Source: an uncultured virus (IMG/VR IMGVR_UViG_3300032038_000054)
Taxonomy: Duplodnaviria > Heunggongvirae > Uroviricota > Caudoviricetes
Virus record (IMG/VR): IMGVR_UViG_3300032038_000054
DNA length: 20,000 bases
Direction: 5' to 3' (one strand)
Below, one piece after another: positions 5,434 to 18,442 of the stretch (position 1 is its first letter; the number at the start of each line of letters is the position of its first letter). The notes beneath the pieces were generated by a model. The model ran no database searches. It was not told where the DNA came from and worked only from the letters and a program-made list of their open reading frames with translations. A program made the translations under genes and the position numbers.

Positions 5434-6069
5434 TTATTGTGCGTTCTGTTGCGCCCCCATAAGCTGAGCTGTAATAGCTCCTTGAAGGTCGCCAGACGCA
5501 AGCTTTTCTTGATAAATTTTGTTATAATCAATCTGCCCGTTACCATTTCCAGAAGCGGGTTCTGGCATGTGTGCGTACAACTCTGCTGTAGTCTCTTCCT
5601 TGACTCTCTTTCTTTCGGATTCCAAAAATCCCTTGAGAAGAGTATTTACAGCCTCCTCTTCGCCTTCCATCTTCATCTGTGCAACTTTTGTTGCATAGTC
5701 TTTATCCATTCCAAGCGCAAGGTAGCTGTCAACAGAATCCCTAAAAGCATTTTTCTTTTTCTCTTTTTCAAGCTCATCTCTCATAAGAGCAATCTCTTCG
5801 GTTTGCTGTGTTGTTAGCGAACTCTCAGATGCAATCTTTTCGCTTAGTTGTTTCTTTAAGCTACTAATCTGGCTTGAATAGTCGTCTATTATCTTCTTTT
5901 GCTTGCGAAGTTCAATCTGCATAGAAGCATTTGCCTTCAAAAGCTCAGAATCTTTAGGTTGTTCTACGTTCTGCCCTTCTTGTGTAGCAGTTGAATTAAC
6001 ATCCTGCTGTTCAAGGTTCTGCTCGTTCTGGTTAACAGTAGCGTTCTGATTGTTATTACTAAGTTCCAT
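5434..6069 (-). CDS. Capsid scaffolding protein
   Basis: 211 aa, Q/E/K-rich coiled-coil with a low-complexity N-terminus. Directly upstream of the capsid gene. Confidence 0.8.
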   Translation of the reverse strand: MELSNNNQNATVNQNEQNLEQQDVNSTATQEGQNVEQPKDSELLKANASMQIELRKQKKIIDDYSSQISSLKKQLSEKIASESSLTTQQTEEIALMRDELEKEKKKNAFRDSVDSYLALGMDKDYATKVAQMKMEGEEEAVNTLLKGFLESERKRVKEETTAELYAHMPEPASGNGNGQIDYNKIYQEKLASGDLQGAITAQLMGAQQNAQ

Positions 6070-13622: not shown

Positions 13623-13681
13623 ATGCGACGGTAGGAGTCGAACCTACGTCATGTTTCGTTCTGCCGTTGAACTACGTCGCA
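13623..13681 (-). ncRNA. tRNA-like RNA lacking the anticodon arm
   Basis: TGCGACG-TA-GTTC-AACGGCA-GAAC-GAAACATGAC-GTAGG-TTCGACT-CCTAC-CGTCGCA. Acceptor, D and T arms are perfect, and a 10-nt linker replaces the anticodon arm and variable loop. Confidence 0.75.
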
Positions 13682-13753: not shown

Positions 13754-13824
13754 CGGCGCTGATAGGAGTTGAACCTACGTCTAGGCAGTCAAAGTGCCAT
13801 GCACTACCGTTGTGCTACAGCGCT
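13754..13824 (-). tRNA. tRNA-Gln(TTG)
   Basis: AGCGCTG-TA-GCAC-AACGGTA-GTGC-A-TGGCA-CTTTGAC-TGCCT-AGAC-GTAGG-TTCAACT-CCTAT-CAGCGCC-G. It has a 1:72 mismatch, a G discriminator and no encoded CCA. Confidence 0.88.
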
Positions 13825-14318: not shown

Positions 14319-14541
14319 AATACCTCCTTATCTCGTTAGCGACATAATCCTGCACCCATTCCCTTGTCGCTAAATCGCCTATATCTGTCGTTGAGCGATG
14401 CTTTAATGAGTTTATCAAGTCTTCACCCAAGCTATCAAGAAGAGTAAACCAATATCCATCCTCATGCCCGTCTCTCCTAGCAAGCCTCTTTTTATCCGCA
14501 ATCCTTTTTCTAATATCCTCTTTCTTAATCGAAGTAAACAT
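14311..14541 (-). CDS. Hypothetical protein
   Basis: 76 aa with RBS AAGGGGG. Overlaps both neighbours. Confidence 0.7.
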   Translation of the reverse strand: MFTSIKKEDIRKRIADKKRLARRDGHEDGYWFTLLDSLGEDLINSLKHRSTTDIGDLATREWVQDYVANEIRRYYD

Positions 14542-14743
14542 ACTTTACCCCCTTCACTCTATATCTTGACCTACCCTTAAGCTCTATATCGCCTCTTTTT
14601 ACCAGATTAGAGAAGTGTCTATGCACGGATGCTATACTAGACAATCCTATACCCTCGCCTATGTCTCTCATGGTAGGTGTAACGCCCTCTCTTATCATAT
14701 AGGCTTTAATAAACTCTAAGACTTCATCTCGCTTCACGCCCAA
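14525..14743 (-). CDS. LexA-type winged-helix DNA-binding protein (no peptidase domain)
   Basis: EVLEFIKAYMIREGVTPTMRDIGEGIGLSSIASVHRHFSNLVKRGDI matches the LexA N-terminal domain. The protein is only 72 aa. Confidence 0.8.
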   Translation of the reverse strand: MGVKRDEVLEFIKAYMIREGVTPTMRDIGEGIGLSSIASVHRHFSNLVKRGDIELKGRSRYRVKGVKYVYFD

Positions 14744-15144
14744 TCCTCCGTTCCTTTATCCATATCATACAGGCTCTCAATCACTCTTCGCTTCATCTCG
14801 TCCTTCTTCTTATCCGTGACCTCTAAGGCATCAATCACTTCATCAACCGATATATAGTCCTCTTCGATGACCTTATTCTGATATCTGAACTTACCTTCCT
14901 CATCACGATAGATTAACTCTTTATCAAGCAGAAATCTGAATATCTTGGCTAAATGCCCTACATCAGTGCCTATCTCTTCCGCTATCTCGTCAAATAGCCC
15001 GACATTCCATCCCATTAGTTTACCTCTTATTACCTCAGATAAGCTCAGACCAGTCATACTCGCTTCATCCCGTAGCATCTTCATCTGTTCACTGTTTACT
15101 CTCACTCTAAGAGTCTCACACAAATCTTCTGTTGGTCTGCTCAT
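14734..15144 (-). CDS. RHH-domain DNA-binding protein
   Basis: N-terminal TLRVRVNSEQMKMLRDEASMTGLSLSEVIRGKL (CopG/MobC-like), with a possible wHTH in the middle. Confidence 0.6.
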   Translation of the reverse strand: MSRPTEDLCETLRVRVNSEQMKMLRDEASMTGLSLSEVIRGKLMGWNVGLFDEIAEEIGTDVGHLAKIFRFLLDKELIYRDEEGKFRYQNKVIEEDYISVDEVIDALEVTDKKKDEMKRRVIESLYDMDKGTEDWA

Positions 15145-15331
15145 TTCTTATCTCCCTTAATGCTCTATAAATCTCTTTTTCATCACACCCACCTTGCTCT
15201 GCCCTGTCAATGGTCTCTACAAGGTATTTTAAGGCATCTATGCTCTTTATCGCCATATTTATAGCCCATTCTTTCTCCGCGGGTGATACTGGCTCTCCAT
15301 TTAGTATCTCTTTAGCCCTCTTTGTCCACAT
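15116..15331 (-). CDS. Hypothetical protein
   Basis: 71 aa with RBS AAGGAGG. Confidence 0.7.
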   Translation of the reverse strand: MWTKRAKEILNGEPVSPAEKEWAINMAIKSIDALKYLVETIDRAEQGGCDEKEIYRALREIRNEQTNRRFV

Positions 15332-15340
15332 AAGTCCTCC

Positions 15341-15472
15341 TTATATTTCATAAAAATTGCATGTTTTTTTCATGTTTATTTCATAAGAACTTCTGCTTTA
15401 TTTCCTAAAAATTTCATGTTTATTGCATGGTTTTTTCATGTTTTTCTCATGGTTATTGCATCAATTTTGCAC
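15341..15472. repeat. Degenerate 11-bp tandem repeat, about 12 units (consensus about GTTTWTTKCAT)
   Basis: CAT starts at 15349, 15360, 15371, 15382, 15415, 15426, 15437, 15448 and 15459, an exact 11-bp register. Degenerate units fill 15393, 15404 and 15470. Confidence 0.8.
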
Positions 15473-15717
15473 TCTAGCAATGCTTCCAGTACATCGTCTG
15501 CATCATCTACCAATATCCCGCCTACTGGATTAAACCATGGTGTCTTCCTAAACTCCATAAGCGTTACTGGTGTCGGTATGTCTACGTCTTCTGCCATACG
15601 TATCACGTTCTTTTTCCTTTCCTCGTTGACAACCAAGATTCTCTTTCCTGTCTCGTGGCTCATCGCGATGAGTGCTTTCGTCTTTCCAAGTCCTTTTCCT
15701 CTTATTATCTTTCTCAT
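15436..15717 (-). CDS. Minimal P-loop NTPase-like protein (93 aa)
   Basis: True start is MRKIIRGKGLGKT, after AGAAAGGAG. Walker A-like GKGLGKT and Walker B-like ILVDD. Confidence 0.7.
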   Translation of the reverse strand: MRKIIRGKGLGKTKALIAMSHETGKRILVVNEERKKNVIRMAEDVDIPTPVTLMEFRKTPWFNPVGGILVDDADDVLEALLECKIDAITMRKT

Positions 15718-15744
15718 AACTCTCCTTTCTATTTGCAAAATGAG

Positions 15745-16163
15745 TTTTGTGGTACAAAACGTTACCCTAAAAAGTTTTGTGGTACAAAACATTACCCTAA
15801 TTGAGTTTTGTGGTACAAAACCCTTACCTTAAAAAGTTTTGTGGTACAAAATGCAGAGTTTTGTGGTACAAAACTATTTATTTTGTGGTACAAAACTCGA
15901 AACCCGCTCTGGTACTGAGTTATTTTGTGGTACAAAACTATTTCGAGGGGTTTTGTGGTACAAAATTCTAGGGTTTTGGGGTACAAAACTATTACCTTAT
16001 CTGGGTTTTGTGGTACAAAACTCTCTCTTTTCTCTATTTTTAGTATCGGCATATATAGCAAAATGACACTTTTTTAGAGTGTTTTGTGGTACAAAACTCA
16101 GAAAGCCCATAACCACGCGGTTTTATTTTGTGGTACAAAACTATCGGGTTTTGTGGTACAAAA
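15745..16163. repeat. Array of 13 quasi-palindromic 15-mers TTTTGT-GGT-ACAAAA
   Basis: Copies start at 15745, 15775, 15806, 15837, 15859, 15881, 15923, 15951, 15974 (one-base variant), 16006, 16082, 16126 and 16149. All have the same orientation. Confidence 0.95.
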
Positions 16164-16165
16164 CT

Positions 16166-16195
16166 ATTTTATAACCGAATAGGGTATGGTGTCAA
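16166..16195 (-). promoter_or_regulatory. Leftward sigma-A-type promoter
   Basis: TTGACA (16195-16190) with either TATAAA (16-nt spacer) or TAAAAT (18-nt spacer). It fires across the 15-mer array toward the gene starting at 15717. Confidence 0.65.
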
Positions 16196-16356
16196 GTCTT
16201 TTTGGTTTTGAGGGTGGAGAGAGGGGTTATTAGGCACGGAAGAGAGTTCAAAATAAACCCCCATACCACGGGTACTAGCTGTTCTTAATAAAAGTTAACA
16301 AGAAAATCGTTCGTAATCAACAACCCCTACACTCCGCATAAATAGGCGGTTCTCAG

Positions 16357-16388
16357 CACCTTCGTTTAATGGTAATTATACGAAAGTG
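16357..16388. other. loxP/dif-like tyrosine-recombinase target site (putative)
   Basis: CACCTTCGTTTA-ATGGTAAT-TATACGAAAGTG. The arms are 10/12 inverted, and the inner arms match loxP TTCGTATA/TATACGAA at 15/16 positions. Confidence 0.5.
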
Positions 16389-16500
16389 TCTATATTTAAC
16401 ACGAGCGAATATGCGGATTATTCAGTGTTTATGCGGGTTTGCGCGATTTCTTTTTTAGTGTCTCCGCGATTTGTTTTAATTTGCCACCCCACCAATAATT

Positions 16501-16656
16501 TATAAGTCAGTCTTATATTCCAAATAAAATATATAAGTAAATCTTATATTTAAACCTTATATCATATAAGTAAAACTTATACTATTGCATATAATCAGAC
16601 ATATAATCTGTAAAGACATTATTACATAACAGCTATGAATATAATAAAAACTTATA
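16501..16656. repeat. TATAAG-N5-CTTATA palindromes in an AT-rich tract
   Basis: Copies at 16501, 16532 and 16565, a variant (TATAAT-N5-CTTATA) at 16640, and a half site at about 16556. Confidence 0.75.
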
Positions 16657-16714
16657 CTAAGAAACAGCATAAAGAATGATAAGACTGTATATTTATATTG
16701 AGGTATATATAGTA

Positions 16715-17490
16715 ATGGAGATGTGCAACAGAGGGTGGCTCGGACACTTCGTTGTCCGATGCCTTCTCGCCTGCGGCGATTTCAGGGGAGTATCCGAGGG
16801 TCATTGTGTCTCATCTTGAATAGAGCAGAGGAATAGCAAGAAGTGTAAACAGAGAAATAATCAAGTACCCAAACCCACAGGGCTTTATCTTGTGTGAGCG
16901 TCACGACTCGTCTCACGACTCGCTGTTTATAGTACGCAATGCACACATCCGTGTGTGCAAAGCTCAGTAGGCACACCAAGTTCCGACTAAGTGGCTAAGA
17001 TTGTCTGTTACTTCGTGTAACAGCCAATTTTACCCACTAAGTCTCCACATTATAGTATGGGAAAGTTCTAAGGGTCTAAATAACAGCCCCTAAGAACTTT
17101 CGGCAGAACCCGTCAAGGGTGTGGGTTTGAGGTAAACACATTGCTATCGTGCGCCACTACACATCACCGCGCCACGAACCACGTTAAATCCGCACGTTCC
17201 TACGAAACCGAGCCTTTTAAAAGCAAAAAATACTTGTAGGCTCGTTTTCTGACAACGACTCAAACCCCATAAAGTTTTAATAATATTTTTATACAATCTG
17301 TCAATAACAGCTATATCAAAACTAAAGACTGTGCTGACAGATTATACAAAAATATTCCTAAAACTTTACAAGCCCTTGTCTGAACCTGCCAATTCACTAA
17401 CCTTTGCTAAAGCAAAGCTAAGTGAATCCATACACAGCAGAAGGTGTAATTATTGTCAGCTAAATAGCTAAAATCGAAAGGAGATTACAC
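16715..17490 (+). ncRNA. Candidate large structured RNA or long structured leader
   Basis: No credible ORF. More than 10 helices, including long-range nested pairs, and UUCG/UCCG-containing loops on the plus strand. Confidence 0.55.
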
Positions 17491-17491
17491 T

Positions 17492-18403
17492 ATGAAAAAC
17501 TTTAAGGAAATGATTTCAGAAATCACAGCAAACGCAATGGCAGAGATTGAGGTAAACGAAACAATCAATCTTGTAAACGAGGAGCAGAACACTCTTGAGA
17601 AAGCACTTGCACGTCTTGAATCAATGGACACAGACGTTCTTGCAAGAGCTAAAGAAGATGCAAACGCCGTTGACGGTCACACACGCTACTACGATGTAAT
17701 GAGTGGTTATGATTCAAAGTACATGAATCGCAATGATTGGAGAGTTGCAAGAAAGATACGCAACAATTCAGCTTACAACATTCGTAAAGAGAACTACGAA
17801 GCAGAGCAGAAAGCTAAGTTTGAATATGATTTGGTTCAAGCAGGAGTTAAGAAAGCTACAATAGCAAAGATAAAGAAACATAAGAGTTTGCCTAATGCAA
17901 CATATGTAAAGATTGACAAAAAGGTTTACACTAAAGATTATAAGCCTAGCAACAGCTCATTTGAAACAGTAAGAGTTGTTGACTACAAGATATATCACAA
18001 AGCAATCGTTCTTGAGGTTGCATCGGCAGACGCAGAGCGAATCACAGGTTACTTCGACGATATGATTAACGAGTACAATGCAAAGCGTGATGTTTACTTC
18101 GATGTAGATACACGTAACGAATCAACTTATCATGTCGTATTCAGATATGAGCCTTTCGATAGATTCGGTAAGCCGAACAAATACGACGGAATCATGCAGT
18201 TACGTAACTTCTTAAATCAGCAGAAGTTCATAACACAGCAAAAGCCAGTTCGAGTTGGTGAGTATCTCGAAATCCTCAAAGGCAACAAGGTAAACCTTCC
18301 GCTTTCGATGGTTTACAACTACACAGAGAAATCCGATAAACTCACTGTTTATAAGGTTTACGGCAACTTTGAAGAGTTCGACAAGGAGCTTCGCGCTGAA
18401 TAG
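17492..18403 (+). CDS. Hypothetical protein (first early-type gene, 303 aa)
   Basis: RBS GAAAGGAG and its own terminator. No family recognised. Confidence 0.85.
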   Translation: MKNFKEMISEITANAMAEIEVNETINLVNEEQNTLEKALARLESMDTDVLARAKEDANAVDGHTRYYDVMSGYDSKYMNRNDWRVARKIRNNSAYNIRKENYEAEQKAKFEYDLVQAGVKKATIAKIKKHKSLPNATYVKIDKKVYTKDYKPSNSSFETVRVVDYKIYHKAIVLEVASADAERITGYFDDMINEYNAKRDVYFDVDTRNESTYHVVFRYEPFDRFGKPNKYDGIMQLRNFLNQQKFITQQKPVRVGEYLEILKGNKVNLPLSMVYNYTEKSDKLTVYKVYGNFEEFDKELRAE

Positions 18404-18411
18404 TATAAATC

Positions 18412-18442
18412 GCCTAGAGGTTAACAGCCTCTAGGCTTTTTT
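18412..18442 (+). terminator. Rho-independent terminator
   Basis: GCCTAGAGG-TTAACAG-CCTCTAGGC followed by a T-run. Confidence 0.9.

Follow-up and report, generated by a model that had tools for sequence, protein, structure and literature searches.

The non-coding stretch at positions 16715-17491 of a 20,000-nucleotide DNA from an uncultured tailed phage (hereafter the window) is probably a new large structured RNA or a replication-origin element, and is best explained as a member of a small, previously undescribed family of non-coding elements of 0.8-1.0 kb. It is part of a 2.1-kb origin-like hub, marked by iterons, an AT-rich zone and a minimum of the GC skew, which the preliminary description of this DNA had missed. 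Bacteria and phages have few large structured non-coding elements, and even for the best-known of them, GOLLD and ROOL, a function has yet to be found. The present element differs from these in being tied to one protein gene, in holding a constant position within an origin-like hub and in carrying simple repeated motifs. As an RNA it would found a new class whose part in phage replication or early control can be tested; as a DNA fold it would be an unusually elaborate single-strand origin structure for a large tailed phage. In both cases it points to the probable centre of replication and control in a group of uncultured rumen phages. The reading we prefer, with a probability of roughly 40%, is that of a transcribed structured control or origin RNA whose action would be in cis and which may offer the downstream protein a platform.

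The tailed phage to which the window belongs has been recorded only in metagenomes of rumen and gut, and the genome that hosts the element is that of a rumen siphophage of roughly 91 kb. Terminase, portal, capsid and tail genes, two tRNA genes and small regulators occupy the - strand up to position 15331, and the first + strand gene of the window begins at 17492. Three lineages only were compared: A, comprising the window, L001/L014 (= G003) and L015; B, represented by L018; and C, represented by L029 (G002). The complete relative G003 (91,323 bp, sharing ~94% identity with the window and having a terminal repeat of 127 bp at the contig ends) carries its genes on the - strand from 0.6 to 52.9 kb, on the + strand from 55.0 to 76.4 kb and again on the - strand from there to the end, with one divergent switch (53-55 kb) and one convergent switch (~76.4 kb). 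From this gene strand order it follows that the hub is the sole divergent switch of the genome. The earlier placement of the element before the first early gene is plausible. The cumulative GC-skew minimum of G003 lies at 54,001-55,000, inside the hub; gene-strand bias adds to GC skew, and the minimum is therefore supportive rather than proof. A frame for a DnaB-type helicase of 696 aa is present at 21.1 kb in G003, and no family-A polymerase was found in that genome.

Between the two gene blocks, the hub opens on its left side with seven repeats spaced at 11 bp (15345-15461); next come about 13 iterons (15741-16165), then a sequence-conserved block (16170-16500), an AT-rich zone (16497-16714, with 19.5% GC at 16500-16699) and finally the candidate element itself. 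The iteron is the near-palindromic 16-nt TTTTGTGGTACAAAAC, whose ~13 copies (11 + 2) are irregularly spaced at 22-92 nt and sit upstream of the small gene 15436-15720; G003 has 11 copies, every one of them at the hub. Lineage C has the same hub layout, with another iteron array, built on GTTAC, at the equivalent place. Judged by its sequence, the hub appears to have the arrangement of an iteron-type origin, a direct-repeat array beside an AT-rich zone of putative unwinding. The small - strand gene at 15436-15720 encodes a 94-aa protein (PHROG 1828) with a glycine- and lysine-rich N-terminal motif, which may bind the iterons because its start abuts them. The repeats at 15345-15461 are seven copies of the ATTTCAT / ATTGCAT type just upstream of the first leftward gene, and a contig of the RNA run X1 ends at 15374, within this array.

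Four operator-like palindromes lie at 16497-16660 in the AT-rich zone, and a fifth at 15330-15348 overlaps the start of the gene 15116-15331. This zone is the most variable part of the region in close relatives (identity 0.57-0.81 versus 0.90-0.99 in the element), and in L001 it is swapped for an unrelated AT-rich sequence with its own repeated word, a replacement that resembles an immunity-type swap. A 72-aa protein encoded on the - strand at 14525-14743 contains nothing beyond a LexA-type DNA-binding domain (Pfam E 9.7e-12) and is a candidate repressor of the operator-like palindromes; lineage C has a homologue at the edge of its hub (L029 1747-1971). The block at 16170-16500 is kept in sequence in lineage C, with a 19-nt identical core at ~16253-16271 and a small hairpin at ~16348-16380, and contains a terminator-like site (16272-16260) and a strong promoter-like site (16195-16166, 11/12), both on the - strand. 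We rejected this block as a part of the fold, as its consensus with lineage C has an unfavourable covariation term (+0.61) and many broken pairs.

The stretch 16715-17491 is non-coding. The longest open reading frame in 16078-17491 has 65 aa (code 11), and no frame across the element is open under code 4 or with TAG read as Q. A 47-aa frame at 16676-16819, which covers the 5' hairpin and the 16-mer described below and is also open in lineage C, was rejected: lineage B has no start codon there, the shared blocks are nucleotide-identical with no synonymous change, and the hairpin of B would give an unrelated peptide. Folded as RNA, the + strand of the element reaches -244 kcal/mol versus -181 +/- 5.5 for shuffled sequences (z -11.45, with none of 20 shuffles as good) and the - strand reaches -277.8 kcal/mol (z -8.34), while folding with DNA parameters gives z values of -8.74 (+) and -12.42 (-). 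An equal-length piece of the adjacent coding gene, used as a control, has an RNA z of -2.94. The preliminary description had named helices with neither covariation nor stability above that of shuffled controls as grounds for abandoning a structured element; on both strands the element is stable beyond chance.

The seven local stems and the 100-nt rod that had been listed from the sequence are all present where they had been placed, and all belong to the minimum-free-energy fold; they include the stems at 16740-16759, 17005-17023 and 17209-17244. With coordinates on the + strand, the predicted fold begins with a 5' hairpin of 15 pairs (16731-16768), and the 16-mer GGGGAGTATCCGAGGG at 16785-16800 is the sole long block identical across the three lineages. 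The 5' domain (16842-17054) holds the hairpins 16940-16959 and 16990-17038 (20 pairs) and smaller ones. The 3' domain (17055-17433) is closed by a helix of 17055-17060 with 17428-17433 and contains a hairpin at 17061-17101 with 17-nt arms that are 88% complementary, a helix of 17121-17131 with 17259-17268 that encloses the hairpins 17147-17177 and 17204-17249, the rod at 17270-17368 (34-nt arms, 88% complementary, with 31 nt between them) and a terminal hairpin at 17392-17427. A last hairpin of nine pairs at 17443-17491 (17443-17451 with 17483-17491) presents the ribosome-binding site in its loop, and its 3' arm stops just short of the start codon; lineages B and C have another small hairpin just before the ribosome-binding site. 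Many helices of the element consist of 17-34 near-perfect pairs, which is unusual among known large structured RNAs. Both arms of the rod have a TTGACA-like hexamer, and promoters within the rod were considered and dropped, since no acceptable second hexamer follows and the feature is not kept in B or C.

The preliminary description had also proposed two long-range nested pairings, 16833 with 17141 and 16870 with 17121, as the closure of a multibranch domain. The complementarity is there, but the ensemble prefers another arrangement: enforcing both pairings costs only 2.3 kcal/mol (-245.4 versus -247.7), and 17121-17131 pairs instead with 17259-17268 at a probability of 0.97, versus 0.001 for the earlier pairing. 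The arm sequences of the preferred helix are the same as those of a covarying helix in the relatives. One substitution in L015 breaks the 16870/17121 helix, and one substitution in L001 and L015 lengthens the 16833/17141 helix.

The close relatives L001/L014 and L015 are 90-99% identical to the window over the element, which is not above the identity of the flanking genes, and they consequently say little on structural selection. The informative comparisons are with lineages B and C, in which the corresponding stretches lie directly upstream of homologues of the 303-aa protein encoded at 17492-18403 (positions 200-1027 of the metagenome contig L018, 33% protein identity; positions 2894-3886 of L029, the complete 108-kb virus G002, 31% identity). 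These stretches of 0.8-1.0 kb have no open reading frames and are as over-folded as that of the window, with z values of -9.2 to -13.8 (15 shuffles each). An over-folded non-coding stretch thus stands directly upstream of the gene family in all three lineages with enough upstream DNA, and the gene co-occurrence that the preliminary description had suggested as a check indicates that the element and the 303-aa gene are evolutionarily coupled. A fourth locus, L016, extends only 203 nt upstream of the gene and has one short motif in common with B.

Near the 5' end the 16-mer is exact in A, B and C; in the complete genome G003 it occurs once, with no occurrence at up to two mismatches on the other strand. 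The 5' hairpin has a 31-nt core that is letter-identical in A and C, and lineage B has a different hairpin of equal shape at the equal place. Lineage A aligns with B and C only in this 5' module and in one helix, and shares with them a layout of closing helix, hairpins, AT-rich rod, terminal hairpin and hairpin at the ribosome-binding site. The order of elements in the 3' domain of A resembles the one that covariation supports in B and C without being identical to it, in that the rod of A lies outside the GTTTGAG/CTCAAAC helix. Motif scans returned chance matches besides the known relatives (real matches: 1 of 11, 2 of 63, 0 of 20 genome loci and 1 of 3 loci, the 20 genome loci having been checked by blastn). 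Scans guided by the protein had led to the distant copies in L018 and G002; they gave no other locus in IMG/VR, nor any in species genomes, and INPHARED phage records gave no DNA or protein match, with nothing found by blastn of 16000-17600 against 50,697 records. The record with the most words in common with the window (G001) lacks this region.

Compensatory changes between B and C back the fold, in line with the homologue and covariation check proposed in the preliminary description. In the RNAalifold consensus of the aligned 3' domains, 11 of the 110 predicted pairs are changed on both sides and none is broken, while sliding the partners by 1-3 columns leaves 0-3 such changes and only one of 500 shuffles reaches 11. 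The consensus structure was derived from the same two sequences, which inflates the percentage paired and leaves the double changes unaffected. In three hairpins that MAFFT had misaligned, 11 of the 15 pairs examined are compensatory, for a total of 22 compensatory changes, and independent folds of B and C lead to the same helix series. The covarying helices include nested long-range ones with arms 170 to 400 nt apart, and therefore speak for a long folded single strand rather than for binding sites in duplex DNA. Within lineage A, one of 15 changed pairs is compensated, the indel zone 16893-16917 being excluded: the A-T pair 16943/16956 of the hairpin 16940-16959 is G-C in L015. The consensus fold of four sequences gave no compensatory pairs in the 5' module, because MAFFT does not align its two hairpin types.

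The nature of the folded strand is less clearly marked than the fold. The consensus energies of B and C are nearly equal on the two strands (-95.45 and -95.0), folds restricted to Watson-Crick pairs are as exceptional as those that allow G.U, and G.U makes up 4-9% of pairs on either strand. Single mismatches inside the helices of A, B and C (n = 21) comprise two G.T, four A.C and 15 others, which is the ratio expected by chance. Given the equal energies, the strength of the Watson-Crick-only folds and the lack of wobble enrichment, the helices do not look RNA-specific. One-sided changes within lineage A give three wobbles valid on the + strand, six valid on the - strand (four of them in the rod) and five plain mismatches. 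The earlier proposal of a new large non-coding RNA accordingly stands as far as a large, multi-domain, folded non-coding element is concerned, whereas RNA and the + strand go beyond what strand-symmetric Watson-Crick helices establish; a structured single-stranded DNA signal, offered as its alternative, fits these helices about as well as RNA does.

Short motifs are distributed unevenly between the strands. AGGGT is the most over-represented of the 1024 5-mers in A, B and C together (15 versus 2.1 expected, split 4, 7 and 4), and its reverse complement occurs once in the same set; five of the copies read TAGGGTAAA and stand at the 5' edge of large hairpin loops. This asymmetry shows that one strand matters, without telling which. 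Hairpin loops based on CTTCG are likewise enriched (7 versus 1.6 expected), and C-GAA-G, which is CTTCG read on the - strand, is an unusually stable DNA mini-hairpin.

Sequencing runs provide contigs, which give neither strand nor ends of transcripts. In X3, an RNA library by its record, contigs cover 16241-16548 and 16834-17084, and of the 30 bins that make up the 20-kb window the remaining 28 are empty; the probable DNA run X2 covers the window evenly. The first of the X3 pieces lies upstream of the AT-rich zone and is consequently not explained by a leader starting at ~16700. X1, and X11 from the same sample, have contigs on the genes of both sides, with one ending at the position in the repeat array given above and the next starting at 17395. 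The depth of X1 is 0-0.82 in the bins of 16009-17342, and this absent cover was not counted against transcription. The sequence immediately before the element shows no consensus sigma-70 promoter, and promoter-like sites are not enriched (11 versus 8.9 +/- 2.9).

Several known systems offer points of comparison. ColE1-type primer and antisense RNAs, and the single-strand origins and single-stranded-DNA promoters of plasmids and filamentous phages, are all folded single strands next to an origin; they measure 100-550 nt and belong to small replicons. Rfam yields no family match for the element in A, B or C, in agreement with the earlier reluctance to assign the region to ROOL or GOLLD: these two give no match in the window at the gathering score, none at E up to 10 in 15900-17700 and none at E up to 1 in L018 and L029. 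MicroRNA-like Rfam matches on the rod (E 0.1-2, far below gathering scores) were set aside as reflecting a generic long hairpin. ROOL RNAs are described in the cited passages as averaging 581 nt, with a complex structure of multistem junctions, and both ROOL and GOLLD as found in rumen samples, in phages or prophages and often near tRNAs (PMC5737381). The element is similarly large, has several predicted multistem junctions and belongs to a rumen phage with two tRNA genes 2.9 kb away, yet it differs in its long near-perfect helices with almost no G.U pairs, and in its constant position, which is before a single protein gene and within an origin-like hub. The tRNA genes are on the - strand to the left of the element, at 13623-13681 and 13754-13824 (Rfam scores of 45.2 and 61.6 bits).

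The nearest described parallel in arrangement is the origin of the lactococcal Ceduovirus phages (c2 type), which the cited passages describe as non-coding, placed between divergent early and late blocks and flanked by the early promoters PE1 and PE2, with a non-coding PE1 transcript (PE1-T) for which both length and structure are considered necessary in replication (PMC7150918). Like the c2 origin, the element is non-coding and lies, before what is plausibly the first early gene, between divergent gene blocks, which in the window are on the - strand to 15331 (plus 15436-15720) and on the + strand from 17492. It has no sequence similarity to Ceduovirus origins (blastn, 50,697 phage records), is larger and adjoins an iteron array, and its own flanking promoters and transcript are putative. 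The untranslated repeat region 3 of T5-like phages, the injection-stop region, is marked by ordered DnaA boxes in a long terminal repeat; the hub has no DnaA boxes and lies far from the terminal repeat of 127 bp in G003, and the nested long-range helices of the element covary, as in a folded single strand and not in duplex sites.

Four points of the preferred reading are inferred: the folded strand would be RNA, it would be the + strand, it would serve replication or early control, and the 303-aa protein would bind it. The element would fold as a single strand into two multi-hairpin domains, and the rightward early promoter or promoters of the hub would transcribe it as a long structured non-coding leader. 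By analogy with PE1-T of c2, such a leader may act in cis at the hub, where it could initiate or license replication, control the early operon, or both. Its repeated AGGGU-type motifs and conserved 16-mer might be presented as sites to be bound, and the co-inherited 303-aa protein is a possible partner.

An origin that works at the level of DNA is the main rival explanation of the same region, possible though rather unlikely. Unwinding of the AT-rich zone or strand displacement would here release single-stranded DNA whose hairpins serve as priming, primosome-assembly or protein landing sites, comparable with the single-strand origins of rolling-circle plasmids and the complementary-strand origins of filamentous phages; another likeness would be a repeat region that acts in cis, as the injection-stop region of T5 does. 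Strand-symmetric, almost purely Watson-Crick helices with no wobble enrichment, long near-perfect inverted repeats of 17-34 bp and the DNA-parameter z values given above are consistent with such an origin, but compensated helices with arms 170-400 nt apart need a lasting single strand, which is easier for a transcript to provide. The element adjoins the iterons and the zone of 19.5% GC, and it lies at the sole divergent switch and near the minimum of the GC skew, as expected of an origin; on the other side, there are no DnaA boxes in 15331-17491 (none of the seven one-mismatch matches of the whole window, a number at chance level, falls there) and the region lies outside the terminal repeat. 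The enrichment of CTTCG loops also agrees with a DNA fold, while the RNA library X3 has pieces of this region and nothing else of the window.

That a functional RNA is instead read from the - strand, or that the two strands form a sense/antisense control pair, seems to us quite improbable. Reading leftward, such a transcript would run through the element and then the AT-rich zone, with the conserved terminator-like hairpin at ~16250-16272 as its end point. The left end of an X3 contig, at 16241, lies just past the - strand terminator-like site and its T-run, the 19-nt core of that site is identical in A and C, and the contig continues into the AT-rich zone (47-nt loose end); however, the terminator-like stem has only five pairs, and the contigs carry no strand information. 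The rod mismatches that are A.C on the + strand become G.U on the - strand, and all four arm changes of L015 are wobble-compatible only on the - strand, but the rods of B and C have no wobble-type mismatches, and G.U pairs in these two lineages are more numerous on the + strand (22 versus 16 and 22 versus 12). The - strand has the lower fold energy of the two, and in antisense-controlled replicons both strands must fold, for which Watson-Crick-only stems are expected; a good - strand promoter right of the rod is missing, the best site (9/12) being one that would start a transcript inside the rod.

Two further readings assign the element to a new class of RNA. A free, trans-acting, large ornate RNA, similar in kind to GOLLD and ROOL, would be freed from the transcript made early and have its site of action outside the hub; it might form a particle together with the 303-aa protein. 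We regard this as very improbable: a size of 0.8-1.0 kb, multi-junction domains, a phage setting in rumen samples and repeated loop motifs are what such an RNA would lead one to expect, whereas Rfam contains no matching family and long perfect helices with few G.U pairs are untypical. In lineage A a terminator-like hairpin at 17204-17249, followed by a T-run, lies before the rod, but B and C have no terminator between the fold and the ribosome-binding site; strict coupling to one protein family agrees with a particle, and the great rarity of that family, with 24 protein clusters found in 1.84 billion representatives, counts against this reading. The other, a distinctly unlikely proposal, is a ribonucleoprotein of a new RNA class of 0.8-1.0 kb, in which the 303-aa protein would read ~4-7 AGGGU-type motifs per copy together with the 16-mer; the particle would, at the very start of infection, either prime replication at the adjacent origin or disarm a host function.

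The gene at 17492-18403 (+ strand) always follows the element, and its 303-aa product belongs to a family without a known domain. One search returned homologues in five clusters, and the 24 clusters mentioned above were counted at 50% identity. Comparison of the protein with PHROGs, Pfam, a PDB sequence profile and the ESM Atlas gave nothing significant, and a wide VIA search gave only coiled-coil matches with Z at most 6.9. In an AF2 model built with 24 sequences, the N-terminal part (1-116) is predicted as long helices, from which a disordered linker leads to a compact domain at the C terminus (157-303) with a pLDDT of ~90. Foldseek with this model found no significant match in the PDB (best E 0.19-0.29); its weak rows, with probabilities of 0.4-0.5, include a plasmid single-strand-binding-like protein and telomere OB folds and serve as leads only. 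Directly after the gene, a perfect 11-bp hairpin with T-runs on both strands (18412-18436) looks like a two-way terminator, so that the gene may be its own transcription unit. Elsewhere in the window, the RNA runs X1 and X11 contain a very deep short contig (depth 430 and 205, versus 20 for genes) that joins ~2106-2123 to 5748-5768 with six other letters between, both places being near gene starts.
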